The position numbers and the translations under genes were made by a program. Below are positions 7,685 through 35,637 of a DNA stretch of 64,000 nucleotides, piece after piece (position 1 is the first letter of the stretch; each line of letters starts with the position of its first letter). A model generated the notes under the pieces. That model worked only from the letters and a program-made list of their open reading frames with translations. It was not told the DNA's origin and did not search any database. Source of the stretch: a virus; the IMG/VR virus record IMGVR_UViG_3300044630_004371, positions 1 through 64,000 of that record; one strand, 5' to 3'.

Positions 7685-9079
7685 ATGAAATTTAGGAAAA
7701 AAGTTGTAATATTAGGTGATGGGTTATTGGGTAATGAAATCCATAATCAAACCAATTGGGAAGTTTTATCTAGAAAACAAACCAATTTTGACATAGCTGA
7801 TTTGGTAAAATCTTTCCCAAAAGATGTTAAGATAGATGTTATAATTAACTGTATAGCAAACACAGACACGTATTCAAAAGATAAAAAATCTCATTGGGAT
7901 GTTAATTTTGCGTTTGTTAGTGACTTGATAAAATATTGCAATTCCAATCTGATAAAATTGGTGCACATATCTACTGATTATGTGTACGCACAATCGATAG
8001 AAAATGCTTCAGAAAATGATGTTCCTGTTCATTGTAATAATTGGTATGGATACACCAAATTACTTGCAGATGGACTTGTACAGTTAGAGGCGAATCAACA
8101 TCTTTTGATTAGATGCACACACAAACCTAAACCATTCCCTTACGAAAAAGCTTGGGAAGACCAAGTTGGTAATTTTGATTATGTTAATATTATTGCGTCA
8201 AAAATAATCAGATTAATTAAAAAAAATGCCATTGGTATATATAATGTTGGTACTGAAACAAAAACAATGTTTGACTTGGCTTCTAAAACAAGTAAAGTAG
8301 AACCAATTAAAGCACCATTACATGTACCTCATAATACCAGTATGGATATTTCAAAAATGCAAACATTTTTTAATGAAAGTGTTAAAAAACCGTTTTTTTC
8401 GATTGCTATACCAACCTATGGTTATAATGGGAAAGGTGTTGAATTTATAGACCATAGTTTAGAAATTCTTAGTAAACAAACATTTAAAGATTTTGAAGTT
8501 GTTATTTCAGACCATAGCATTGATGATACTATAAAAACTATTTGTAATAAATGGAATGATAAGTTGGTGATAAAATACTTTAGAAACAAAAATGGTCGTG
8601 GAGTCATCTCACCAAATATTAATAATGCTATGGTTAATTGTACTGGTAAATGGATTAAAATCTTATTTCAAGATGATTATTTATTTGGTGAGGAATCATT
8701 GGCGAAACACTATAGTTTTATTGAAAATAATGAAGATGTCATTTGGTTTGCGGTCAACACGCATGTAACCAGTGATGGTAAAACTATTGATTGGTCATTC
8801 AGACCAAAGTGGGTTGATAATATATGGACTGGTAATAATCAATTAGGATGCCCAACTAATATAACAATAAAAAATGAAAATTTACTTTATTTTGATGAAG
8901 ACTTAAATTGGTTAATGGACGTGGATTATTATATGAAAATGTATAGAAATTTTGGTCCTGTTAAAATATTAGATGAATTTTTATTAGTTAATAGAGTTTC
9001 ACCAGAAAGACTAACAAATAATTTATCAGAAAGTGAAAAACTATCTGATTTAGAAAAATTAACAAAACGATATGCTTAA
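7685..9079 (+). CDS. RmlD-like sugar reductase fused to a GT2 glycosyltransferase
   Basis: N-term GDGLLG, HISTDYVY, YGYTK; C-term SIAIPTY, ISDHS, LFQDD. Confidence 0.8.
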   Translation: MKFRKKVVILGDGLLGNEIHNQTNWEVLSRKQTNFDIADLVKSFPKDVKIDVIINCIANTDTYSKDKKSHWDVNFAFVSDLIKYCNSNLIKLVHISTDYVYAQSIENASENDVPVHCNNWYGYTKLLADGLVQLEANQHLLIRCTHKPKPFPYEKAWEDQVGNFDYVNIIASKIIRLIKKNAIGIYNVGTETKTMFDLASKTSKVEPIKAPLHVPHNTSMDISKMQTFFNESVKKPFFSIAIPTYGYNGKGVEFIDHSLEILSKQTFKDFEVVISDHSIDDTIKTICNKWNDKLVIKYFRNKNGRGVISPNINNAMVNCTGKWIKILFQDDYLFGEESLAKHYSFIENNEDVIWFAVNTHVTSDGKTIDWSFRPKWVDNIWTGNNQLGCPTNITIKNENLLYFDEDLNWLMDVDYYMKMYRNFGPVKILDEFLLVNRVSPERLTNNLSESEKLSDLEKLTKRYA

Positions 9080-26621: not shown

Positions 26622-27323
26622 ATGAAAAACTTTATAAAAAAATTACTACGTGAAGTAATAAACGCCAGCGAAGCACAACGAGATGAAGATGCTTTAAAAA
26701 CTGTTATAGACGGAAAGAGAGATTTGGGGTTCATAACCTTAAAAGCCGCAACAATCCCAGAAAAAACATTTTGGGATGAAATTAAAAAACATGGTTTAGG
26801 AACTATAAGTCTTCCATTGAATCGTTATAACGCTTTCATTTATTTTAGAAAAGGTGCTGAATTAAAAGCCCTTGAATTATCTAATATTGCAAATAAATAT
26901 GGTGGTTATCTATCATATGAAGCAACCAGAGATGAGACAATAAGAATTGGGCAATTGCTAGGTTATAAAGAATCAGATATATCTGATTATATAAATAAAA
27001 AATACCCAGTAAATGAACAAATGATTGATGGTCAAGACATGAATCAAGGGACCCAAACCCTGTGTAATAAAATGACCATAAACAGCTATCAAGAAGCCGC
27101 ATTCTACGTCAAGAAGGCTCTAGAAGGTATGGATAAAACAACCAAAAATAGAATCATGCAAAAGATTCATGTGCCTTTGGAGAACCTTAGACAAGAACAA
27201 AATACAATCAATTCAGAAATCAAAAATAATGGTATGTCTGGAGATTCAATACCAGACGAAGCTGATACATATTGGCATCAAATTCAATCAACCATTTGTG
27301 AAATGGGTTCAGATTTTGAATAA
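26622..27323 (+). CDS. Putative internal head protein with IKKLLRE leader
   Basis: MKNFIKKLLREVINASE leader; second module after PVNE. Confidence 0.55.
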   Translation: MKNFIKKLLREVINASEAQRDEDALKTVIDGKRDLGFITLKAATIPEKTFWDEIKKHGLGTISLPLNRYNAFIYFRKGAELKALELSNIANKYGGYLSYEATRDETIRIGQLLGYKESDISDYINKKYPVNEQMIDGQDMNQGTQTLCNKMTINSYQEAAFYVKKALEGMDKTTKNRIMQKIHVPLENLRQEQNTINSEIKNNGMSGDSIPDEADTYWHQIQSTICEMGSDFE

Positions 27324-28395: not shown

Positions 28396-28426
28396 AAAAA
28401 AGGGGTTTTTAACCCCCTTTTTTTTT
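28396..28426. terminator. Bidirectional intrinsic terminator at convergent strand switch
   Basis: AAAAAAGGGG-TTTTTAAC-CCCCTTTTTT with A/T tails on both sides. Confidence 0.8.
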
Positions 28427-29183
28427 ATCTCATATTTTTACCTAATAACCCTTCTCTATTCATTCTAATTTTTAAATCTCTTATCCATCTTTCTTTAAAA
28501 TTACTTGGTAAACTATTATTTACAGTGTTTAAGGCTGGTGATATATTTAATATATCGTCAAATGTCAAGACATTCCAATTATTTTTATATTTATTGTATA
28601 ATTGTTTAATATTATGAATTTGTCCTTGTATTTCCATTTTTGTTGCGTTAACTGGAATTCCACCTATATCTCTTGTTTGTAATTCCACCTGTTTATTGAT
28701 TCTTTTTTCTATGTGTCTATTATGAAACACATCATCAATCCAATGTGTTAATTCATGATGAATAGAACCTTTAATTTTTTCTTCGGTAAATTCTATTTTA
28801 AATATCTTTTTTTGTTTGTAATCACTTAAATCATTAACAGCTTTAACAAAATCACCACCATTCGATAACACATGAGCTAAAGCATTTTTATGTATACCAA
28901 TACTTATTAATGATTTTTTTGGGTCGTAAAAATTACTACCCATATTAACCAAAATAGTACATGGTTTTAATTGATTAGCAATGATACATTCCCCATCTTT
29001 AAAAATCCTCGTTGTTGTTTGATTTTCTTTAAACATATTTCTAGTTACAATATTGGTTCTTTCAATCTCATCAATATCATTTTTAAAATAAAGATTGTAT
29101 AATAAATTAACATCTGATTCTATATTTGTTAATCTCTCAATTAACAAATTTTCTCTTAAAAGTTTTTTAATTAAATTTTTCAT
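28425..29183 (-). CDS. Putative internal head protein with HExxH (zincin-like) motif
   Basis: MKNLIKKLLRENLLIE leader; IHHELTHWID and downstream EIQG. Confidence 0.55.
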   Translation of the reverse strand: MKNLIKKLLRENLLIERLTNIESDVNLLYNLYFKNDIDEIERTNIVTRNMFKENQTTTRIFKDGECIIANQLKPCTILVNMGSNFYDPKKSLISIGIHKNALAHVLSNGGDFVKAVNDLSDYKQKKIFKIEFTEEKIKGSIHHELTHWIDDVFHNRHIEKRINKQVELQTRDIGGIPVNATKMEIQGQIHNIKQLYNKYKNNWNVLTFDDILNISPALNTVNNSLPSNFKERWIRDLKIRMNREGLLGKNMR

Positions 29184-29297: not shown

Positions 29298-30275
29298 TTA
29301 AGGTTGATGCAATGTTTTTATGATAGATTTTACACTATCGTCAATTGTTTTGATGGGTTCCCAACCCATTATATTTTTTGCTTTTGAACTATCTGAATAT
29401 ATTTTTTCAATATCACCATCCCTACGTGGACATATTTCATATGGTATTTCATAACCATGTCTTTTAAAAGCTTCAAGTACATCCATAACGCTATACCCAT
29501 TTCCAGAACCAATATTGATAACAGAAAATGTTTCTTTTTCAGTAACTGAAATTGATTTTACATGTGCATCGGCCAAATCATTGACATCAATATAATCCCT
29601 AATTGCCGTTCCATCATGTGTATTATAATCGTTGCCAAATATTTTTAAATTAAGATATTTACCTTCTATCACACCCGTAATGTATGGTATAAGATTCTCT
29701 GGCACACCTTTAGGTTTTTCTGATATCAATCCAGATGGATGAGCTCCAATAGGATTAAAATAACGCAATATAACCACATTTAAACCACTTTTACTAACTT
29801 CTTGTAGGATTTCCTCACAAATCTGTTTTGTGAGCCCATATGGGCTTTTAGCTGGCTTTATTGGTGTATCTTCATTTACTGGAAACTTATCTGGTTCACC
29901 ATATACAGTACATGATGATGAAAAGATAAACTTCTTTACACCCATGCTTTTTGCTGCTTGTAAAAGCTTGATTGTACTGGTAATATTATTATCAAAGTAT
30001 TTTATTGGTTCCCTAACTGATTCAGAAACTGATTTATATGCCGCAAAGTGTATGATACAATCAACATCTGTAAGCACATTCTCTATAGAAAAAACACTCA
30101 AGTCAATAAAATGACATTCTACTTCTTTACCTGTCAAGGTTTTTATGTTTTCAAGCACATCAATTGATGAGTTGGACAAATTGTCGACAATGATTGGGTT
30201 ATGACCTTCTTCGATAAGTTTTACTACGGTATGGCTACCAATATAACCAAGACCACCTGTTACTAAAATATTCAT
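29298..30275 (-). CDS. galE: UDP-glucose 4-epimerase
   Basis: ILVTGGLGYIGSH, FSSSCTVYG, PYGLTK, LRYFNPIGAH, DGTAIRDYI; start refined to 30275. Confidence 0.95.
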   Translation of the reverse strand: MNILVTGGLGYIGSHTVVKLIEEGHNPIIVDNLSNSSIDVLENIKTLTGKEVECHFIDLSVFSIENVLTDVDCIIHFAAYKSVSESVREPIKYFDNNITSTIKLLQAAKSMGVKKFIFSSSCTVYGEPDKFPVNEDTPIKPAKSPYGLTKQICEEILQEVSKSGLNVVILRYFNPIGAHPSGLISEKPKGVPENLIPYITGVIEGKYLNLKIFGNDYNTHDGTAIRDYIDVNDLADAHVKSISVTEKETFSVINIGSGNGYSVMDVLEAFKRHGYEIPYEICPRRDGDIEKIYSDSSKAKNIMGWEPIKTIDDSVKSIIKTLHQP

Positions 30276-30295
30276 AAGTATAATATACGTATAAA

Positions 30296-30330
30296 ACAAA
30301 AAAAGGCTAGAATAAATTCTAACCTTTTTA
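30296..30330 (-). terminator. Intrinsic terminator after orphan capsid 3' copy
   Basis: Minus strand AAAAAGGTTAGAAT-TT-ATTCTAGCCTTTTTTT. Confidence 0.7.
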
Positions 30331-30350
30331 AGTTTATATAAGAATATTAA

Positions 30351-30419
30351 TTATCTTAATTCTGCTACGTTGAATGTAGGTACACCATCTACTCTTACAT
30401 GCCCGTAAAACCTGTTATT
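30351..30419 (-). pseudogene. Orphan recoded copy of the last 22 codons + stop of the major capsid gene
   Basis: Translates NNRFYGHVRVDGVPTFNVAELR*, identical to 31604-31672 but with 13 nt differences in 12 codons, all synonymous. Confidence 0.9.
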
Positions 30420-30816
30420 TGGTTAGAATAATTTGATATGTTAAATCAGCAACGTACTCCAACATGGTCTTTCCGTGTTGTTTTATGAATTTAATTCTAT
30501 GTTTATTTACATTAAATGATTCTAATTTTGGTATTTCATTTACTTCACCCATAACATATTTATGAGCCATTGGATAATTTATAGCAAAAACCTTAAAACC
30601 CACCGAATTCACCAGCTCAACATCTCTTTTATTACCACCCCATAATTCAAGCTCATTAATATATTTATCTAAATCTTCTCGTAGGATACACCAACATTGA
30701 ATGCCATCATAAGGTAATTTTCTAATGGTACCACGATTATCAAAATTCTTTGTTCGTACAAAAATGATGTCATTATTAAGGTTTTCTCTTAATATTTTTT
30801 TTATCAACAACTTCAT
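30415..30816 (-). CDS. Hypothetical protein with IKKILRE leader (cassette passenger)
   Basis: MKLLIKKILRENLNN; ATATTTAT motif at 30821-30828 immediately upstream. Confidence 0.65.
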   Translation of the reverse strand: MKLLIKKILRENLNNDIIFVRTKNFDNRGTIRKLPYDGIQCWCILREDLDKYINELELWGGNKRDVELVNSVGFKVFAINYPMAHKYVMGEVNEIPKLESFNVNKHRIKFIKQHGKTMLEYVADLTYQIILTK

Positions 30817-30818
30817 AT

Positions 30819-31508
30819 CTATAAATATCTTGGTCCTTTAGAAAGATTATCTGGCCACCATAATGGTTGAAGATTTTCCAATCGCCAACACTCTTTAAAC
30901 TCTGGGTCTTCTGGTGATGTAAAATTAAAACTTGACATTGGTCTTATATGGTCAACATGCCACTCACCATAATTATCCCACGTCATACCGTTTACAAATT
31001 GTTTTTCCAAATGATTCATCAATTCCTCAATCGTATACCCAAGCAATTCAAATGTTTTATTTGTTTTTTTAATACCACGCTCTTTAAGCAATTGCCAAAC
31101 AGCGGTACGGGTTCTAACACCTAAACGATACTTTGGGTCCTCAGAACGTCTTTTACGTTCATAATCACGCTTATATTTATTTACACGTTCTTTATTATCT
31201 TCCCTCCATTCAGTATGTTTTTCACGTAAATATTCTCTATTTTCTTTAGACCATTCTTTATAAAATTTGCTTCTTTTTAATTTTATATCTGGTTTAGATT
31301 CATATTTCTTTTGTGCAACTTGTCTACCTCCAATATTTCGTCTTCCAGATGACCCTAATACAATTCCATTTTCTTTAAGTGTTCTAATAATGATTGTTTT
31401 ATGTATACCCATTTTTTTGCTAATTGTTGTTGAACCTAATAGTTCTTCATTATACATACGTAAACATTCATATGTTTGTTCTGGCGTTAATTCTATTTTT
31501 TTACTCAT
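30819..31508 (-). CDS. HNH homing endonuclease
   Basis: MTWDNYGEWHVDHIRP...NLQPLW..DNLSKG HNH motif, N-terminal HTH-like segment; start refined to 31508. Confidence 0.85.
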   Translation of the reverse strand: MSKKIELTPEQTYECLRMYNEELLGSTTISKKMGIHKTIIIRTLKENGIVLGSSGRRNIGGRQVAQKKYESKPDIKLKRSKFYKEWSKENREYLREKHTEWREDNKERVNKYKRDYERKRRSEDPKYRLGVRTRTAVWQLLKERGIKKTNKTFELLGYTIEELMNHLEKQFVNGMTWDNYGEWHVDHIRPMSSFNFTSPEDPEFKECWRLENLQPLWWPDNLSKGPRYL

Positions 31509-31552
31509 AATATAAATATACAAACAATCTATTTAAAAGTCAAGTACTAAAA

Positions 31553-31582
31553 ACAAAAAAGGTGAGAAAAATCTCACCTTTT
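31553..31582 (-). terminator. Intrinsic terminator of major capsid gene
   Basis: Minus strand AAAAGGTGAGA-TTTT-TCTCACCTTTTTT. Confidence 0.8.
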
Positions 31583-31603
31583 AAGTTTTTATTTTAGAAT
31601 TAA

Positions 31604-33493
31604 TTATCTTAATTCAGCTACATTGAAGGTTGGAACACCGTCTACACGCACGTGGCCGTAGAACCTATTATTCACAACTTTTTTAGCGTAACGAGTCATG
31701 ATACCTTTAACTGGAGCAAAGTTAAAAGGATTGTACATTGTTGGAGTCAATTGCAATGGCACGTATGGTGCGTAAATGTAACCTGTATCCAATAATGATT
31801 TACCTTTGTGACCAACGACTACTGAGTAAGCTGGAGCATAAGGGTCACGGTACACTTGGTAACGTCCACTTAAAGTTCCGATTCTTTCAATACCCATGTT
31901 GTATTGGTCTTGCTCTGGGTTAGCATCTGATACGTGGAAATATTCCAAATCATCGAAAATTGCAGAGATTTCAGAAGAAACCACGATGAAGTTAGCACCA
32001 CCACGAAGAGTTGATTTATGAATTTGAGCACTCAATTGGTTAACTCTAGTAAGAAGAGTTTGGTTCCAGTCTTTTTGAGTGTATGGGCTAGCAGCAGAAG
32101 AAGCTTTTCTCCAACCGTTGTAGTCCCAACGTAATTGCCATGCAGCAGCTTTACGTAAATCTCTAAGGATTTCACGGTCAATTTCCGCAGCAACTTGTTC
32201 TGACAACATAGCTGTCAATTCAGCTTCAGCATCAATGTTGTGGAATGCACTAACATCTTGAGCCAATTCTGGTGACCATGTTGCACGTAATTTTCTTTCT
32301 TCAACAGCAACTACAACTTCAGAAAGTGTGAAAGAAACCTCTCCCAATTCTGTTTCAAGTTCTAATGAAGAATATTCAGCCCATGCAAAACTTAAACTGT
32401 TAGTAACAGCTGAAGTTGAATAAGCAATACCACCAGTAGCACCAGTTGTACCTACATAACCATCATAAGTTGAAGTACCAGCAAGGGCAGTACCACTAGC
32501 AGTTGTACCAACTGGATGACGGAAATCTAATTCAAGATAGATAAGACCAGTATCAGTTACCAAGTTAGATGTTGGATTTTGAACGATAGCCTTGCCATAT
32601 TGTTGAGTTACTACACGGAAAGGAATTTCTTTGTTAGTAGCAATAACTGTGTTACCATCAGAATCTTTATAGTTACCACCAGCAACAACGTGCAATGAAG
32701 CCAAGAATGATTCAGTATCCATGTTGTTACCATCTGGACCAGTTAATACTTCACGTCCATTAGAACCAGCACCACCAGAGAAACCAGAAAGACCTACGAT
32801 TGCACTTCTAACTGAACCATCAGTAGATGTTGGCAATAAAGTAGCACCATAAGTAGGGGTTAATGAACCATCTGAATTAAATGTGAAGGTTGTGTAAGTT
32901 GTTTGTGTTTTGATAGTAAGAGTACCTTTTGAATTGTCGAATAAACCGTCATTGTAGAAGATATCATACATGTTTTTAGCTTGGAACTGAGTCAATGGAG
33001 TTGAAGCTTTAGTAGCAGCAACTGGCAACGCAGCAGCAGTAGCAACACCGTTGTGTTCACCATTCAAACCAGTGTGAGCTGAGAATGTTGTACCATAAAC
33101 GTCTGAACTTGGACTTAATGAATAATCATCACCAGCAACACCAGCAGAGTTTACACGGCTAGATGTTTGAGGGACAAAGAAGAACAATTTACCAATAGGC
33201 ATGTTCATAGCTTGTACAGACACGATGTCGTTAGCTAATAATTTAGAGAAAACTCTACGTACAATTGGGAATACAACTGTTTCGAAAGAACCAGAAGATT
33301 GTGCAGTTGTAGACTCAGTAAGTAATGTAGAAGCTTGGTTCTCATATAACTGAGCGATATTTTCTTTTACGTGGCCTTTAAGACCGTCAAGGAAGCCTAA
33401 GCTATCCCATTTTGATTGGGTTTCTTTACGGATAGCCTTCATGTGGTTCAATCCGATATTACCCACTTGTCCAGATGTTAATAAATGTGACAT
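31604..33493 (-). CDS. gp23: Major capsid protein, T4 gp23-like
   Basis: PIVRRVF..L.ANDIVSVQAM..P.G, RKLRATWSPELAQD..AFHNIDAEAEL, AEIDREI, YAPYVPL, GIMTRYA. Confidence 0.95.
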   Translation of the reverse strand: MSHLLTSGQVGNIGLNHMKAIRKETQSKWDSLGFLDGLKGHVKENIAQLYENQASTLLTESTTAQSSGSFETVVFPIVRRVFSKLLANDIVSVQAMNMPIGKLFFFVPQTSSRVNSAGVAGDDYSLSPSSDVYGTTFSAHTGLNGEHNGVATAAALPVAATKASTPLTQFQAKNMYDIFYNDGLFDNSKGTLTIKTQTTYTTFTFNSDGSLTPTYGATLLPTSTDGSVRSAIVGLSGFSGGAGSNGREVLTGPDGNNMDTESFLASLHVVAGGNYKDSDGNTVIATNKEIPFRVVTQQYGKAIVQNPTSNLVTDTGLIYLELDFRHPVGTTASGTALAGTSTYDGYVGTTGATGGIAYSTSAVTNSLSFAWAEYSSLELETELGEVSFTLSEVVVAVEERKLRATWSPELAQDVSAFHNIDAEAELTAMLSEQVAAEIDREILRDLRKAAAWQLRWDYNGWRKASSAASPYTQKDWNQTLLTRVNQLSAQIHKSTLRGGANFIVVSSEISAIFDDLEYFHVSDANPEQDQYNMGIERIGTLSGRYQVYRDPYAPAYSVVVGHKGKSLLDTGYIYAPYVPLQLTPTMYNPFNFAPVKGIMTRYAKKVVNNRFYGHVRVDGVPTFNVAELR

Positions 33494-33527: not shown

Positions 33528-34793
33528 TTATTTTCTTTCAACTCTATTAATCAAATCTAAGATTCGTTTAGTTGAAGGGTCTACATACGCAGTACTTTCG
33601 TTCAATTGTCTTGAAGAACTTGTTGTAGCTTCTTTAATGATTTTGTTTTCTACTGATTCAGAAATTGGTTTTCTAGTTTCCAATTCGTTGACAATAGTTT
33701 TGTACAACTTTTTAGATTCTTTAAGACTTAAAACATCTTCATCAAATCTTTTAATGATGTTTTGTTTTTCAACCTTAGTAGTAGCGTGTTCGGTAAACAA
33801 TTTAGTTACATAAGTAAGATTGCTATTAAACACTACAGTTTCTACCAATTTTGTTCTAAACTCTTTCAAAGCTGTTCTGAACTCTTGGTTCTCAGCTCTC
33901 AATTTGCTAGCTTCAGTCAATAAAAGGTTATATTTTTTGGTTGTTTCAGAAACAAGTTTCTTAGTGGCTTCAGTGATAGATTTAGGGTTTTCTGGAGCTC
34001 CAATTGATTTTGGTCCTTTACCACGATGTGTTCCCACGCTCATATTAGTACCAATACTAATTTTTTCTTCAATAGGTTCTTCTTCAGACTCTTCCTCTTC
34101 TTCTTCCTCTTCACCTTCTTCATCATCCACAGACATCAAATCAGTTGGTTCTTCACCATCTTCTTCGTCACCCATTTCGATTTCATAATCTACGTCACCT
34201 TCTTCATCACCCATTTCTGGTTCCATTTCTGGTTCCATTTCTGGTTCCATTTCTGGTTCCATTTCTGTAGAACCTTTAAGGTCAGATGTTTTGATAACGT
34301 ATTCTCCTGGTTCAGAGACACTAAGGTGAATTTCGTCACCCACGATTTCGATTTCATCATCACCACTCAATTTCTTGTAGATTGCGATAACGTCATCATC
34401 TGATGCAGATGTCATGTCCAATTCTTCTGATGCACCTAAGTCATCCATTCCTTCTTCGTATGTCATGCCTTCAGCTTCCATACCTTCTGTGTCCATACCT
34501 TCTGTCATTTTTTTAGATTTAGCTTTTTCTTTCTTTTCAGAACCACCTTTGCCATGTTCAGCTTTTTCTTCTTTTTCAGATTCACCAGCTTCATGTTCTT
34601 CATGTGATTCTTCATTTACAGAACCAACTTCCTCTTCTTCATAAACCTCTCTAGTTAGAGATTCTTTCACAACACCATCAATTTCTTCTCTAGCTACGCT
34701 ACGAAGTATTTCTTTTGTGTTGGCATTGAGAGCACTTTGAATATTTTTAATATCCAATAAAGCTTCTTCAAGTATTGATTTTTTGTCTGCCAT
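33528..34793 (-). CDS. Prohead core/scaffolding protein
   Basis: Very acidic, coiled-coil C-terminus, located between protease and capsid genes. Confidence 0.75.
   Translation of the reverse strand: MADKKSILEEALLDIKNIQSALNANTKEILRSVAREEIDGVVKESLTREVYEEEEVGSVNEESHEEHEAGESEKEEKAEHGKGGSEKKEKAKSKKMTEGMDTEGMEAEGMTYEEGMDDLGASEELDMTSASDDDVIAIYKKLSGDDEIEIVGDEIHLSVSEPGEYVIKTSDLKGSTEMEPEMEPEMEPEMEPEMGDEEGDVDYEIEMGDEEDGEEPTDLMSVDDEEGEEEEEEEESEEEPIEEKISIGTNMSVGTHRGKGPKSIGAPENPKSITEATKKLVSETTKKYNLLLTEASKLRAENQEFRTALKEFRTKLVETVVFNSNLTYVTKLFTEHATTKVEKQNIIKRFDEDVLSLKESKKLYKTIVNELETRKPISESVENKIIKEATTSSSRQLNESTAYVDPSTKRILDLINRVERK
34211..34267. repeat. 12-bp tandem repeat (EPEM)n in scaffold gene
   Basis: CCATTTCTGGTT x4 plus partial fifth copy. 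Confidence 0.9.
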
Positions 34794-34914: not shown

Positions 34915-35637
34915 TTAATCGGTCAAAAAATTATCAAGTTTATCAGTTAGGTTCTCTTTGATGATAGATTTTTTAATTTCTACGTTCTCTACATAGGGTT
35001 TAGACTCTTCAACATTCCTAAAAATCCATGCGTCTGGTGTTGATGGAGCTGTTACTACGTCCCAGCAGATAATCTCAAAATCATCTTGAACAATTTGTTC
35101 ACCATTTCTACCTTCTTTCAATGAACCAACACCTCTAGATGATACACCAATCTTTATTCTATTTCTCAATAGATTAGCTACTTCATCACCTTTGGTTGAA
35201 ACAATACCGTAATTGATAAAACCAGGTGTCATAAGGATTTCCATTTTACCCATAAGAGTATGAGCTTCCCACCATGTTTCGATAATATTATGTGAAATTC
35301 TATCACCAGCGATAATACTAGATTCTGGGTGGTCTAATTCACCAACAGCACTACGCTCTCTAATTGCTTTTTGATATAGTTCGTTTTGTCTTACAAGGAT
35401 TTCTTTCGGATATATACGTCCATTACGGTTTAGGATACCGTATTTTTGGAGAATAACGTAAACTACTAGTGGTTCGGCAATAACCAATTTACCAGTTTCT
35501 AATTTTCTTAACTCATTGATAAAAGGCTGGTTTCTTGGTTCGTCTGGGCTTATATAGCCAGCATCGTGCTCAATCAATCCACCCCACCCACTTTCACCAC
35601 GTTTTAGTACTTTAAAATCTTTATAATTTATATCCAT
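34915..35637 (-). CDS. gp21: Prohead core protease, T4 gp21-like
   Basis: NRNGRIYP, GELDHP, SHNI, GVSSRGVGS, WDVVTAPSTPDA. Confidence 0.92.
   Translation of the reverse strand: MDINYKDFKVLKRGESGWGGLIEHDAGYISPDEPRNQPFINELRKLETGKLVIAEPLVVYVILQKYGILNRNGRIYPKEILVRQNELYQKAIRERSAVGELDHPESSIIAGDRISHNIIETWWEAHTLMGKMEILMTPGFINYGIVSTKGDEVANLLRNRIKIGVSSRGVGSLKEGRNGEQIVQDDFEIICWDVVTAPSTPDAWIFRNVEESKPYVENVEIKKSIIKENLTDKLDNFLTD

Follow-up and report, generated by a model that had tools for sequence, protein, structure and literature searches.

Previous studies of fungal mitochondria described mobile open reading frames (mORFs) that bring a foreign C-terminus to the gene they enter, as in atp6 of Allomyces macrogynus and in atp6, atp9, cox2 and nad3 of Glomus sp. 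(PMC3630166), and C-terminal duplications accompanied by homing endonuclease gene (HEG) open reading frames (ORFs) were reported in cob and atp6 of Endoconidiophora (PMC6279837). For Glomus atp6, only synonymous nucleotide differences were reported when the native C-terminus was compared with that of a close relative (PMC3630166). HEGs have also been described as clustering near capsid genes (PMC10448857), and in T4 one-sided homing with illegitimate repair at microhomologies was produced experimentally, while segD, a GIY-YIG gene in the opposite orientation to gene 23, lies between genes 23 and 24 and has a target that was not known according to the same review (PMC2988022). Here we analyse the region behind the major capsid gene in the first 64 kb (64,000 nt, the whole stretch studied, hereafter the window) of IMGVR_UViG_3300044630_004371, an 86.9-kb IMG/VR viral contig of 22% estimated completeness, where a free-standing HNH-like nuclease gene and a second ORF, the passenger, are bracketed by two copies of the capsid gene's 3' end: the resident (proximal) tail, in use by the gene, and a non-coding orphan (distal) tail.

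The closest precedent appears to be the C-terminus-replacing mORFs of fungal mitochondria. Both show the same order, with an in-phase foreign C-terminus, an endonuclease ORF near the 3' end of an essential gene and an orphaned native C-terminus, and in both the orphan is closer to near relatives. However, the fungal enzymes are of the LAGLIDADG or GIY-YIG type and often in phase with the host gene, whereas the window nuclease is HNH-like and not in phase; the window further differs in its T4-like phage host, a replacement tail with its own stop codon and terminator, a promoter candidate of the nuclease's own and a second, unrelated gene. The intronless homing genes of T4 (seg and mob) share with the window a nuclease gene beside an essential gene, sporadic presence among relatives and co-converted flanks. 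They cut inside the neighbouring gene, away from the insertion point, as we infer for the window, and one-sided homology leads them to microhomology junctions such as the one seen here. Their outcomes come from laboratory crosses and constructs, whereas the window represents natural genomes and another nuclease family, unrecognised by Pfam. A literature search, with subscription journals mostly outside it, yielded no phage case of a replaced and orphaned capsid-gene tail. We consider it probable that the structure is the scar of one-sided homing, that is, of cleavage near codon -22 of the capsid gene followed by one-sided illegitimate repair.

Two tails of one capsid gene

Both 31604-31672 and 30351-30419 (minus strand) encode NNRFYGHVRVDGVPTFNVAELR followed by a stop codon. 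Translation of the two copies confirmed the sequence-only reading, which had reported a recurrent capsid 3' end with 13 synonymous differences: 13 of 69 nt differ, in 12 codons, with zero amino-acid changes (12 differences at third positions and one at a first position, CGT/AGA). When 13 random substitutions were simulated 20,000 times, the peptide was left unchanged in 0 cases. Past the stop codon the copies are still alike (55/75 nt identical) through a terminator hairpin in each, in agreement with the related hairpins that the same reading had noticed (Table 1). The distal copy is out of frame with the passenger ORF, is without an in-frame ATG, GTG or TTG, and has an in-frame TAA two codons upstream of its first Asn codon. 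An HNH gene and an ORF with an IKKILRE leader had been placed between the copies; both ORFs are there, but Pfam does not call the first of them HNH.

The arrangement was also found in independently assembled contigs (Logan) from two other lake runs, X4 and X5, neither of them flagged as the source sample. These contigs bridge both junctions and cover 30239-31103 and 31132-31706 (X4) and 30255-30938 and 30960-31706 (X5), in each case with 0 differences. At least half of the words of the studied stretch occur in each of 20 lake-water or freshwater metagenome runs; runs X15 and X20 cover the stretch partly, and nothing was drawn from their uncovered parts.

A search with the galE-like protein recovered two empty-site relatives, L171 and L182, in which the capsid gene runs into a single tail, a terminator and, about 80 nt on, galE, with no cassette. 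This is the order that had been predicted for relatives without the cassette. Amino-acid identities to the window are 84% (L171) and 82% (L182) for the capsid protein and 92% and 90% for galE, respectively. The window from 30419 to 29282 is collinear with L171 2853-3994 in one block (85.5% nt identity), the start of which is exactly 66 nt upstream of the L171 capsid stop codon (-66; negative numbers below count upstream of the capsid stop codon of the sequence concerned). The spacer, hairpin and galE leader on the distal side closely match L171 and L182, and the HNH-bearing loci L091, L096 and L001 share the proximal terminator type and the TACTTGAC promoter-like element; TACTTGAC is kept at the same place in L102 too. 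Since the distal tail is collinear with the empty sites and the proximal tail with the HNH-bearing relatives, the native copy is the distal one. Compared with the empty site, the window has an insert of 1253 nt, which comprises the replacement tail, terminator, promoter, nuclease gene and passenger, so that the native tail, its terminator and galE now lie this far downstream of the capsid gene's foreign tail. Between the left (capsid) and right (galE) flanks we found no similarity break against L171 (85.3% and 85.5%).

The foreign nature of the resident tail is indicated by a jump in divergence. Against L171, L182 and L091, the share of differing positions is 2.0%, 4.3% and 1.6% over -330..-77 and 22%, 22% and 18% over -76..-1 (Fisher p 3e-8 to 8e-6); the counts against L171 are 5/254 and 17/76 positions, respectively. 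A sharp break in similarity to close relatives lies between -118 and -76, clustered differences begin at -76, and from there divergence stays raised across the terminator and the 5' half of the HNH gene, as in co-conversion. A 32-nt core of the resident tail is found exactly in three HNH-less contigs (L196-L198) with different flanks and capsid genes about 79% identical at the nucleotide level, and it is also present inside the L096 orphan, which has 6 differences from the resident tail. Such an exact core elsewhere indicates short-patch recombination, not new mutation. None of the sampled loci had the whole resident tail and terminator at near identity, as a donor would. In all six pairs among the window, L171, L182 and L091, the last 76 nt differ by 17-22%, nearly all synonymously, and -330..-77 are 96-99% identical; judged from these alignments, the capsid 3' end is a population-wide diversity hot spot, not peculiar to the window genome.

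We explain the purely synonymous differences by two separate lineages, in each of which the tail evolved while in use as a gene end, and not by a designed recoding. Designed recoding for immunity within -66..-1 was considered as a candidate and found no support: the orphan has only 6 differences from the functional tails of the HNH-bearing L001 and L091, and downstream of -66 the proximal and distal copies sort inconsistently at the discriminating positions.

A recurrent breakpoint and the nuclease gene beside it

We searched for further orphans by querying each locus with its own tail, in 92 HNH-bearing and 66 HNH-less loci (158 in total). Six contigs had been fetched twice (L001/L097, L009/L117, L024/L110, L030/L109, L041/L122 and L056/L147), and by name there are 86 distinct HNH-bearing contigs and 152 in all. 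Orphan tails were present in L096, L102 and L118 (3/92 HNH-bearing) and in L019 (1/66 HNH-less). Together with the window this gives five orphans, all of which start at -66 to -63, while those of L019 and L102 may reach about -78 in a degenerate form. Compared with their own resident tails the five orphans have 13, 12, 11, 11 and 4 differences, and the only amino-acid change is one Val/Ile in L118; in L019 all 12 differences fall in the coding part and 62/75 nt past the stop codon are identical. The HNH gene lies between the tails together with the 133-aa (amino acid) passenger in the window, a 183-aa leader-bearing ORF in L096, two minus-strand zinc-ribbon ORFs in L102 and a 63-aa ORF in L118, and in HNH-less L019 a leader-bearing ORF with a GNAT domain stands there alone. 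The genes downstream of the five orphans differ as well. With different passengers, different downstream genes and a shared start, these are independent events at one recipient breakpoint. In 89/92 HNH-bearing loci no orphan was seen in the sequence at hand, which indicates that the duplication arises now and then from repair and does not belong to the element itself.

The same codons stand out when alleles are compared. The association set had 157 rows; once identical sequences were dropped, 118 alleles were left, of which 62 were HNH-bearing and 56 HNH-less. Within the last 240 nt the strongest contrast is at -67, the base before the breakpoint, with T in 6/62 HNH-bearing and 36/56 HNH-less alleles (p 5e-10). 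In 25 phylogenetically independent pairs T(-67) opposes HNH in 13.8 and accompanies it in 1.6 (median p 0.0024), and among 234 pair tests the seven best positions are all within -106..-40. Moreover, GTTAAC at -69..-64 is found in 26/56 HNH-less and 3/62 HNH-bearing alleles. The association fits a putative recognition or cleavage site at the Val-Asn codons; hitch-hiking with a co-converted tract, instead of immunity, could look similar. For the earlier proposal that the resident allele is probably immune to its own nuclease, support comes only from the allele association at -67, and recoding within -66..-1 is unsupported.

The nuclease gene itself behaves as a mobile element. It had 456 reported relatives in viral contigs, and all of the best 80 of these 456 (80/80 loci) have the HNH-like gene about 100-150 nt downstream of a capsid gene. 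The capsid query matched more than 598 contigs, and 80 capsid loci were examined alongside the 80 nuclease loci. From the best 80 capsid loci and the window, after two rows with less than 400 nt downstream were dropped, the HNH state could be called in 76 capsid rows, 14 bearing the gene (window included) and 62 without it. In a tree of 124 capsid rows, from which the last 40 codons and identical capsid genes had been left out, the HNH state changed at least 31 times. A fixed locus, sporadic presence and this number of state changes indicate mobility, and empty-site alleles occur in close relatives, as for homing genes. Embedding in an intron or intein is excluded by the capsid ORF, which closes with its own stop codon and terminator before the nuclease gene begins. 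As a further candidate, splicing of a group I intron was rejected: an Rfam scan of 30000-32000 at E<=1 gave no intron family, and its six matches, mostly terminator look-alikes, were all below gathering scores. A blastn search against annotated phage records gave short or distant matches only.

With reservation, we call the nuclease HNH-like on the strength of a PHROG match and a motif. The family phrog_1035, annotated 'endonuclease VII', was matched over residues 84-227 (E 8.5e-16). The C-terminal motif reads WHVDH...NLQPLW...DN; in 26 homologues H184, D186, H187, N212 and N221 are invariant, and W-H-V-D-H, N-L-Q-P-L-W and the distal D/E-N are invariant or nearly so. The ORF had no match in Pfam, NCBIfam or PDB sequences (searched with the protein, and PDB also with a profile), and no HNH-clan family appeared among its Pfam matches listed up to E 10 or, for the 26 homologues, among the 13 Pfam families listed up to E 0.1. 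An AlphaFold model (pLDDT 81) has an N-terminal three-helix helix-turn-helix (HTH) with Z 6.5-7.5 to the DNA-binding domains of GcrA, Tc3 and resolvase, and Foldseek and VIA searches with the whole model returned this HTH only. For a model of the C-terminal domain (pLDDT 70.5), VIA gave one row, a retron Ec83 chain at Z 2.7, which is too weak to use, and the language-model neighbours with a Pfam family were PF01844 clusters with scores of 0.87 and 0.81 (<0.9).

DHHRN homing endonucleases have been described as having a central DHDH flanked by CX2-4C and CX2C zinc ligands, with a conserved R and N (PMC6083498). The window nuclease resembles F-CphI, a DHHRN enzyme of cyanophage S-PM2, in being free-standing in a T4-like phage and in its central H-x-D-H and distal Asn, and the annotation of the matched PHROG family likewise recalls the Endo VII motif. 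It differs in that the zinc ligands defining the DHHRN group are missing (the window family is without paired Cys, and only C207 is invariant) and in its target gene and domain architecture, with an N-terminal HTH. The family as a whole appears to be a large one, unrecognised by Pfam and tied to the 3' end of gp23-type capsid genes. Between window 30819-31508 and L091 3001-3687 the C-terminal 90 aa are 100% identical (98-100% at the nucleotide level, window 31140-30841), and the middle of the gene is only 67-72% identical; by these values the nuclease gene is itself a mosaic.

Probable one-sided homing and its alternatives

The sequence-only reading had proposed that an intron-less homing element entered the capsid ORF with a replacement 3' end and terminator, and this proposal is supported by the L171 and L182 empty sites and the foreign tail. 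Under our preferred reading, one-sided homing, a free-standing HNH-like homing gene would be resident just downstream of the gp23-type capsid gene in many lake T4-like phages, and its enzyme would break HNH-less capsid alleles about 66 nt before the stop codon, at or near Val-Asn-Asn codons (often GTTAAC). The recipient ancestor would have had the order capsid gene, tail, terminator, galE. The left end of the break would have invaded an HNH-bearing, co-infecting relative, and homologous copying would have begun 10-50 nt upstream of the break and passed through the donor tail, terminator, promoter, nuclease gene and the next gene, a leader-tagged ORF. Because the donor had nothing homologous to galE, the copied strand would have been joined illegitimately to the intact right end of the break, at a short match, AATAA, overlapping the passenger stop codon. 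The hairpin behind the orphan is the only terminator between the passenger and galE and probably now terminates the passenger transcript.

If this is correct, these natural genomes indicate that an essential phage gene can have its end rewritten by a selfish nuclease gene and still stay intact, and that the same event can bring a neighbouring, probably capsid-packaged gene into a new phage. A concrete cut-site prediction would arise, and the 3' end of this common marker gene would be a recombination hot spot by which phylogenies can be misled. A wider claim, which we regard as possible but doubtful, is that the last ~76 nt of the capsid gene are a population-wide battleground in which repeated attack by a nuclease family specific to capsid genes drives short-patch synonymous mosaicism, with about 10 times the adjoining divergence in ~98%-identical phages, that failed homing regularly carries capsid-targeted, probably injected cargo between lake phages, and that the orphans map the cut, to the base pair, to the centre of GTT/AAC.

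Several findings weigh against one-sided homing. The nuclease domain is unrecognised by Pfam, PDB sequences and fold search, and the association p-values fail Bonferroni correction over the 234 tests. The L019 orphan brackets a leader ORF only, so that its break needs a trans-acting or another nuclease. The junction abuts the passenger stop codon in 4/5 cases, which random microhomology capture does not obviously predict, and in L091 this spacer and terminator directly follow another passenger, the orphan coding sequence being absent. In addition, the orphan differs at 9 positions from the L171 and L182 tails and at 6 from the HNH-bearing L001 and L091 tails, and tails are short-patch mosaics even in near-identical phages, which blurs the assignment of donor and recipient. 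The L091 locus and the stop-abutting junctions suggest later cassette swapping, presumably via conserved leader and terminator modules.

The last of these points leads to the alternative that survives best, although we judge it improbable: cassettes would be shuffled independently of any nuclease at conserved leaders (5') and spacer-terminator modules (3'), with the orphan as a by-product and HNH as a mere neighbour. Leader-bearing ORFs of unrelated sequence do occupy this locus, only downstream of the capsid gene, the p252 ORF (Table 1) is absent from L171, and L019 has an orphan without HNH. Over most of the 3' half of HNH, the window matches L091 at 98-100%; identity falls to 80% at the HNH end and passenger leader and returns to 94% in the spacer, terminator and galE start, with unrelated passenger bodies in between. 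Such shuffling leaves three things unexplained: the shared start of the five orphans at one capsid codon, within coding sequence; the difference between HNH-bearing and HNH-less alleles at exactly this place; and, among close relatives, a divergence of the last 76 nt that is about 10-fold that of the preceding 254 nt.

Retention of the orphan as a functional sequence seems very unlikely. It could give the passenger a capsid-like C-terminus through a programmed frameshift, or act as an RNA element for cargo expression, and the peptide is indeed identical between the copies in 4/5 cases, while the orphan always stands directly behind the stop codon of the passenger ORF with its hairpin as sole terminator before galE. 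The frame offsets, however, vary (+1 in the window, +2 in L019 and 0 behind a stop in L096), on which ground a passenger-orphan frameshift fusion was rejected, and there is no in-frame start codon. Moreover, L091 has the same spacer and terminator without orphan coding sequence, the L118 orphan has an amino-acid change, no Rfam family was found at threshold, and earlier function in a different genome explains a divergence confined to synonymous sites.

We give equally little credence to a tandem duplication of the tail in situ with later selection for synonymous differences that would keep repeat recombination from removing the cargo. Direct repeats flanking a cargo are unstable and divergence would stabilise them, and L019, with its 12 coding differences and a largely identical post-stop region, has the expected look; the flanks of the two copies nevertheless differ, each matching its own class of relatives, the core of the resident tail is exact in other lineages, and the near-identical terminator repeats would still permit deletion. 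An assembly chimera of HNH-bearing and HNH-less strains, which the sequence-only reading had named as a danger, is the least credible alternative of all. Both kinds of strain are present in lake metagenomes and the window is a metagenome contig, but the parental forms share only ~5 nt at the passenger/orphan junction, too little for an assembler, the X4 and X5 contigs bridge galE-orphan-passenger-HNH and HNH-terminator-tail-capsid, the stretch recurs in the 20 runs, and four contigs from other samples have the same architecture.

Leader-bearing ORFs and other features of the locus

The features of the locus are collected in Table 1. The order of protease, scaffold-like and capsid genes is presumably that of T4 genes 21-22-23.

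Table 1. Features around the capsid gene of the window, with their positions, strand and supporting evidence or remarks
Feature	Position	Strand	Evidence or remark
Prohead protease gene, T4-type	34915-35637	-	PF03420, E 5.5e-24; precedes scaffold-like ORF and capsid gene
Acidic scaffold-like ORF	33528-34793	-	sits between protease and capsid genes
Capsid gene, T4 gp23 family, 629 aa	31604..33493	-	PF07068 Gp23, E 1.5e-72
Resident (proximal) tail, foreign capsid 3' end, ~76 nt and stop	31604..31682	-	divergence jump against relatives
Proximal intrinsic terminator, GGTGAGA...TCTCACC and T run	31557..31582	-	terminator scan; dG -22 kcal/mol, z -7.0
Sigma-70-like promoter candidate for nuclease gene, TTGACT-17 nt-TATATT	31515..31543	-	10/12 consensus matches
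HNH-like nuclease gene, free-standing, 229 aa	30819..31508	-	phrog_1035 match and motif
Passenger ORF, 133 aa, leader MKLLIKKILRE	30415..30816	-	candidate capsid-targeting leader; intact
Orphan (distal) tail, native capsid 3' end, now non-coding	30351..30419	-	begins at capsid -66
Distal intrinsic terminator, GGTTAGA...TCTAGCC and T run, native capsid terminator	30300..30329	-	dG -18 kcal/mol, z -5.5
galE-like NAD-dependent epimerase gene, capsid gene's pre-insertion neighbour	29298..30275	-	PF01370, E 7.5e-51
Second leader-bearing ORF (p252), 252 aa, MKNLIKKLLRE	28425..29183	-	belongs to variable cargo locus
Third leader-bearing ORF, 233 aa, MKNFIKKLLRE	26622..27323	+	leader

Three ORFs of the window, all beside the capsid gene, begin M-K-x-[LF]-I-K-K-[LI]-L-R-E. 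Among the 19 closest relatives (L001-L019), 12 such ORFs occur downstream of the capsid gene in 9 and none upstream. Homologues of p252 stand directly after HNH in L009, L099, L116 and L117. The passenger has 26 homologues (E<=0.001), several of which share a YQIIL-x-K C-terminus, and this shared end indicates that the passenger is intact; no Pfam, PHROG or NCBIfam family and no relatives in the viral_contigs search were found for it. Most passenger homologues, P0002, P0007, P0013 and P0016 among them, carry another leader, e.g. MKDLKQFIKTTIQEFLNE, which also ends L-x-E, and the same body can thus sit behind different leaders.

T4 internal proteins share a conserved capsid targeting sequence (PMC3012670). 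The window ORFs are, like them, diverse proteins sharing only a short N-terminal leader, and a T4-type prohead protease is encoded here; differences are that the T4 leader sequence is unlike that of the window and that the window locus lies directly after the capsid gene. The cleavage motif of the T4 protease, which we take to be L/I-x-E, would fit the L-R-E at the end of the window leaders. From these likenesses we infer that the leader-bearing ORFs may be capsid-packaged, late-expressed cargo. As to the earlier suggestion that the element carries a cargo gene, a leader ORF was inserted with it, but it is better read as the donor's neighbour dragged along than as a designed cargo. The L019 ORF between its two tails (7860-8630), a leader-bearing passenger with a GNAT domain (PF00583, E 5.8e-7), is a candidate packaged enzyme.

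The motif ATATTTATAG lies 2-6 nt upstream of the ATG of the passenger and of p252 and 2 nt upstream of that of the L019 leader ORF; that of the passenger sits within the final codons of the nuclease ORF, 2 nt ahead of the passenger ATG. Its form ATATTTATA(G) is found 2-6 nt before the starts of the passenger (30816), p252 (29183) and the nuclease (31508) and about 19 nt before that of the protease (35637), with 12 occurrences of ATATTTATA on the minus and 3 on the plus strand. The passenger's ATATTTATA falls within the R-Y-L-stop codons of the nuclease ORF (30819-30830), and deletion of the nuclease gene would therefore remove it. As for the promoter candidate of the nuclease gene, the region holds 22 promoter-like sites against a shuffle mean of 26.1; such sites are not enriched, and the promoter evidence is weak.

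Further observations concern the relatives and the capsid gene. In L091, 4206-4323 hold the window's spacer, terminator and first 53 nt of galE behind a different, 170-aa leader-bearing ORF, and galE there breaks off into an unrelated minus-strand ORF as a truncated remnant. The two minus-strand ORFs of L102 (3658-4974; 203 and 199 aa) have repeated CP-x-HG-x-F-x-Q...G-x-GCP-x-CG zinc-ribbon units; the end of the first looks like a PD-(D/E)XK nuclease domain, and both are candidates for additional homing-nuclease genes nested here. In L096 (5243-6100; PF01541, E 5e-6) and L019 (9165-10235; IYIYGL...YIGKS motif, no Pfam match) the orphan is followed, about 0.5-0.9 kb downstream, by a GIY-YIG-type ORF; a second nuclease family may be at work at the capsid-tail locus. 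Finally, the middle of the capsid gene (32330-33230, about -1626..-726) is 60-83% identical to L171, L182 and L091 at the nucleotide level, with flanks of 93-98%, and looks like a swapped variable domain in the capsid protein.

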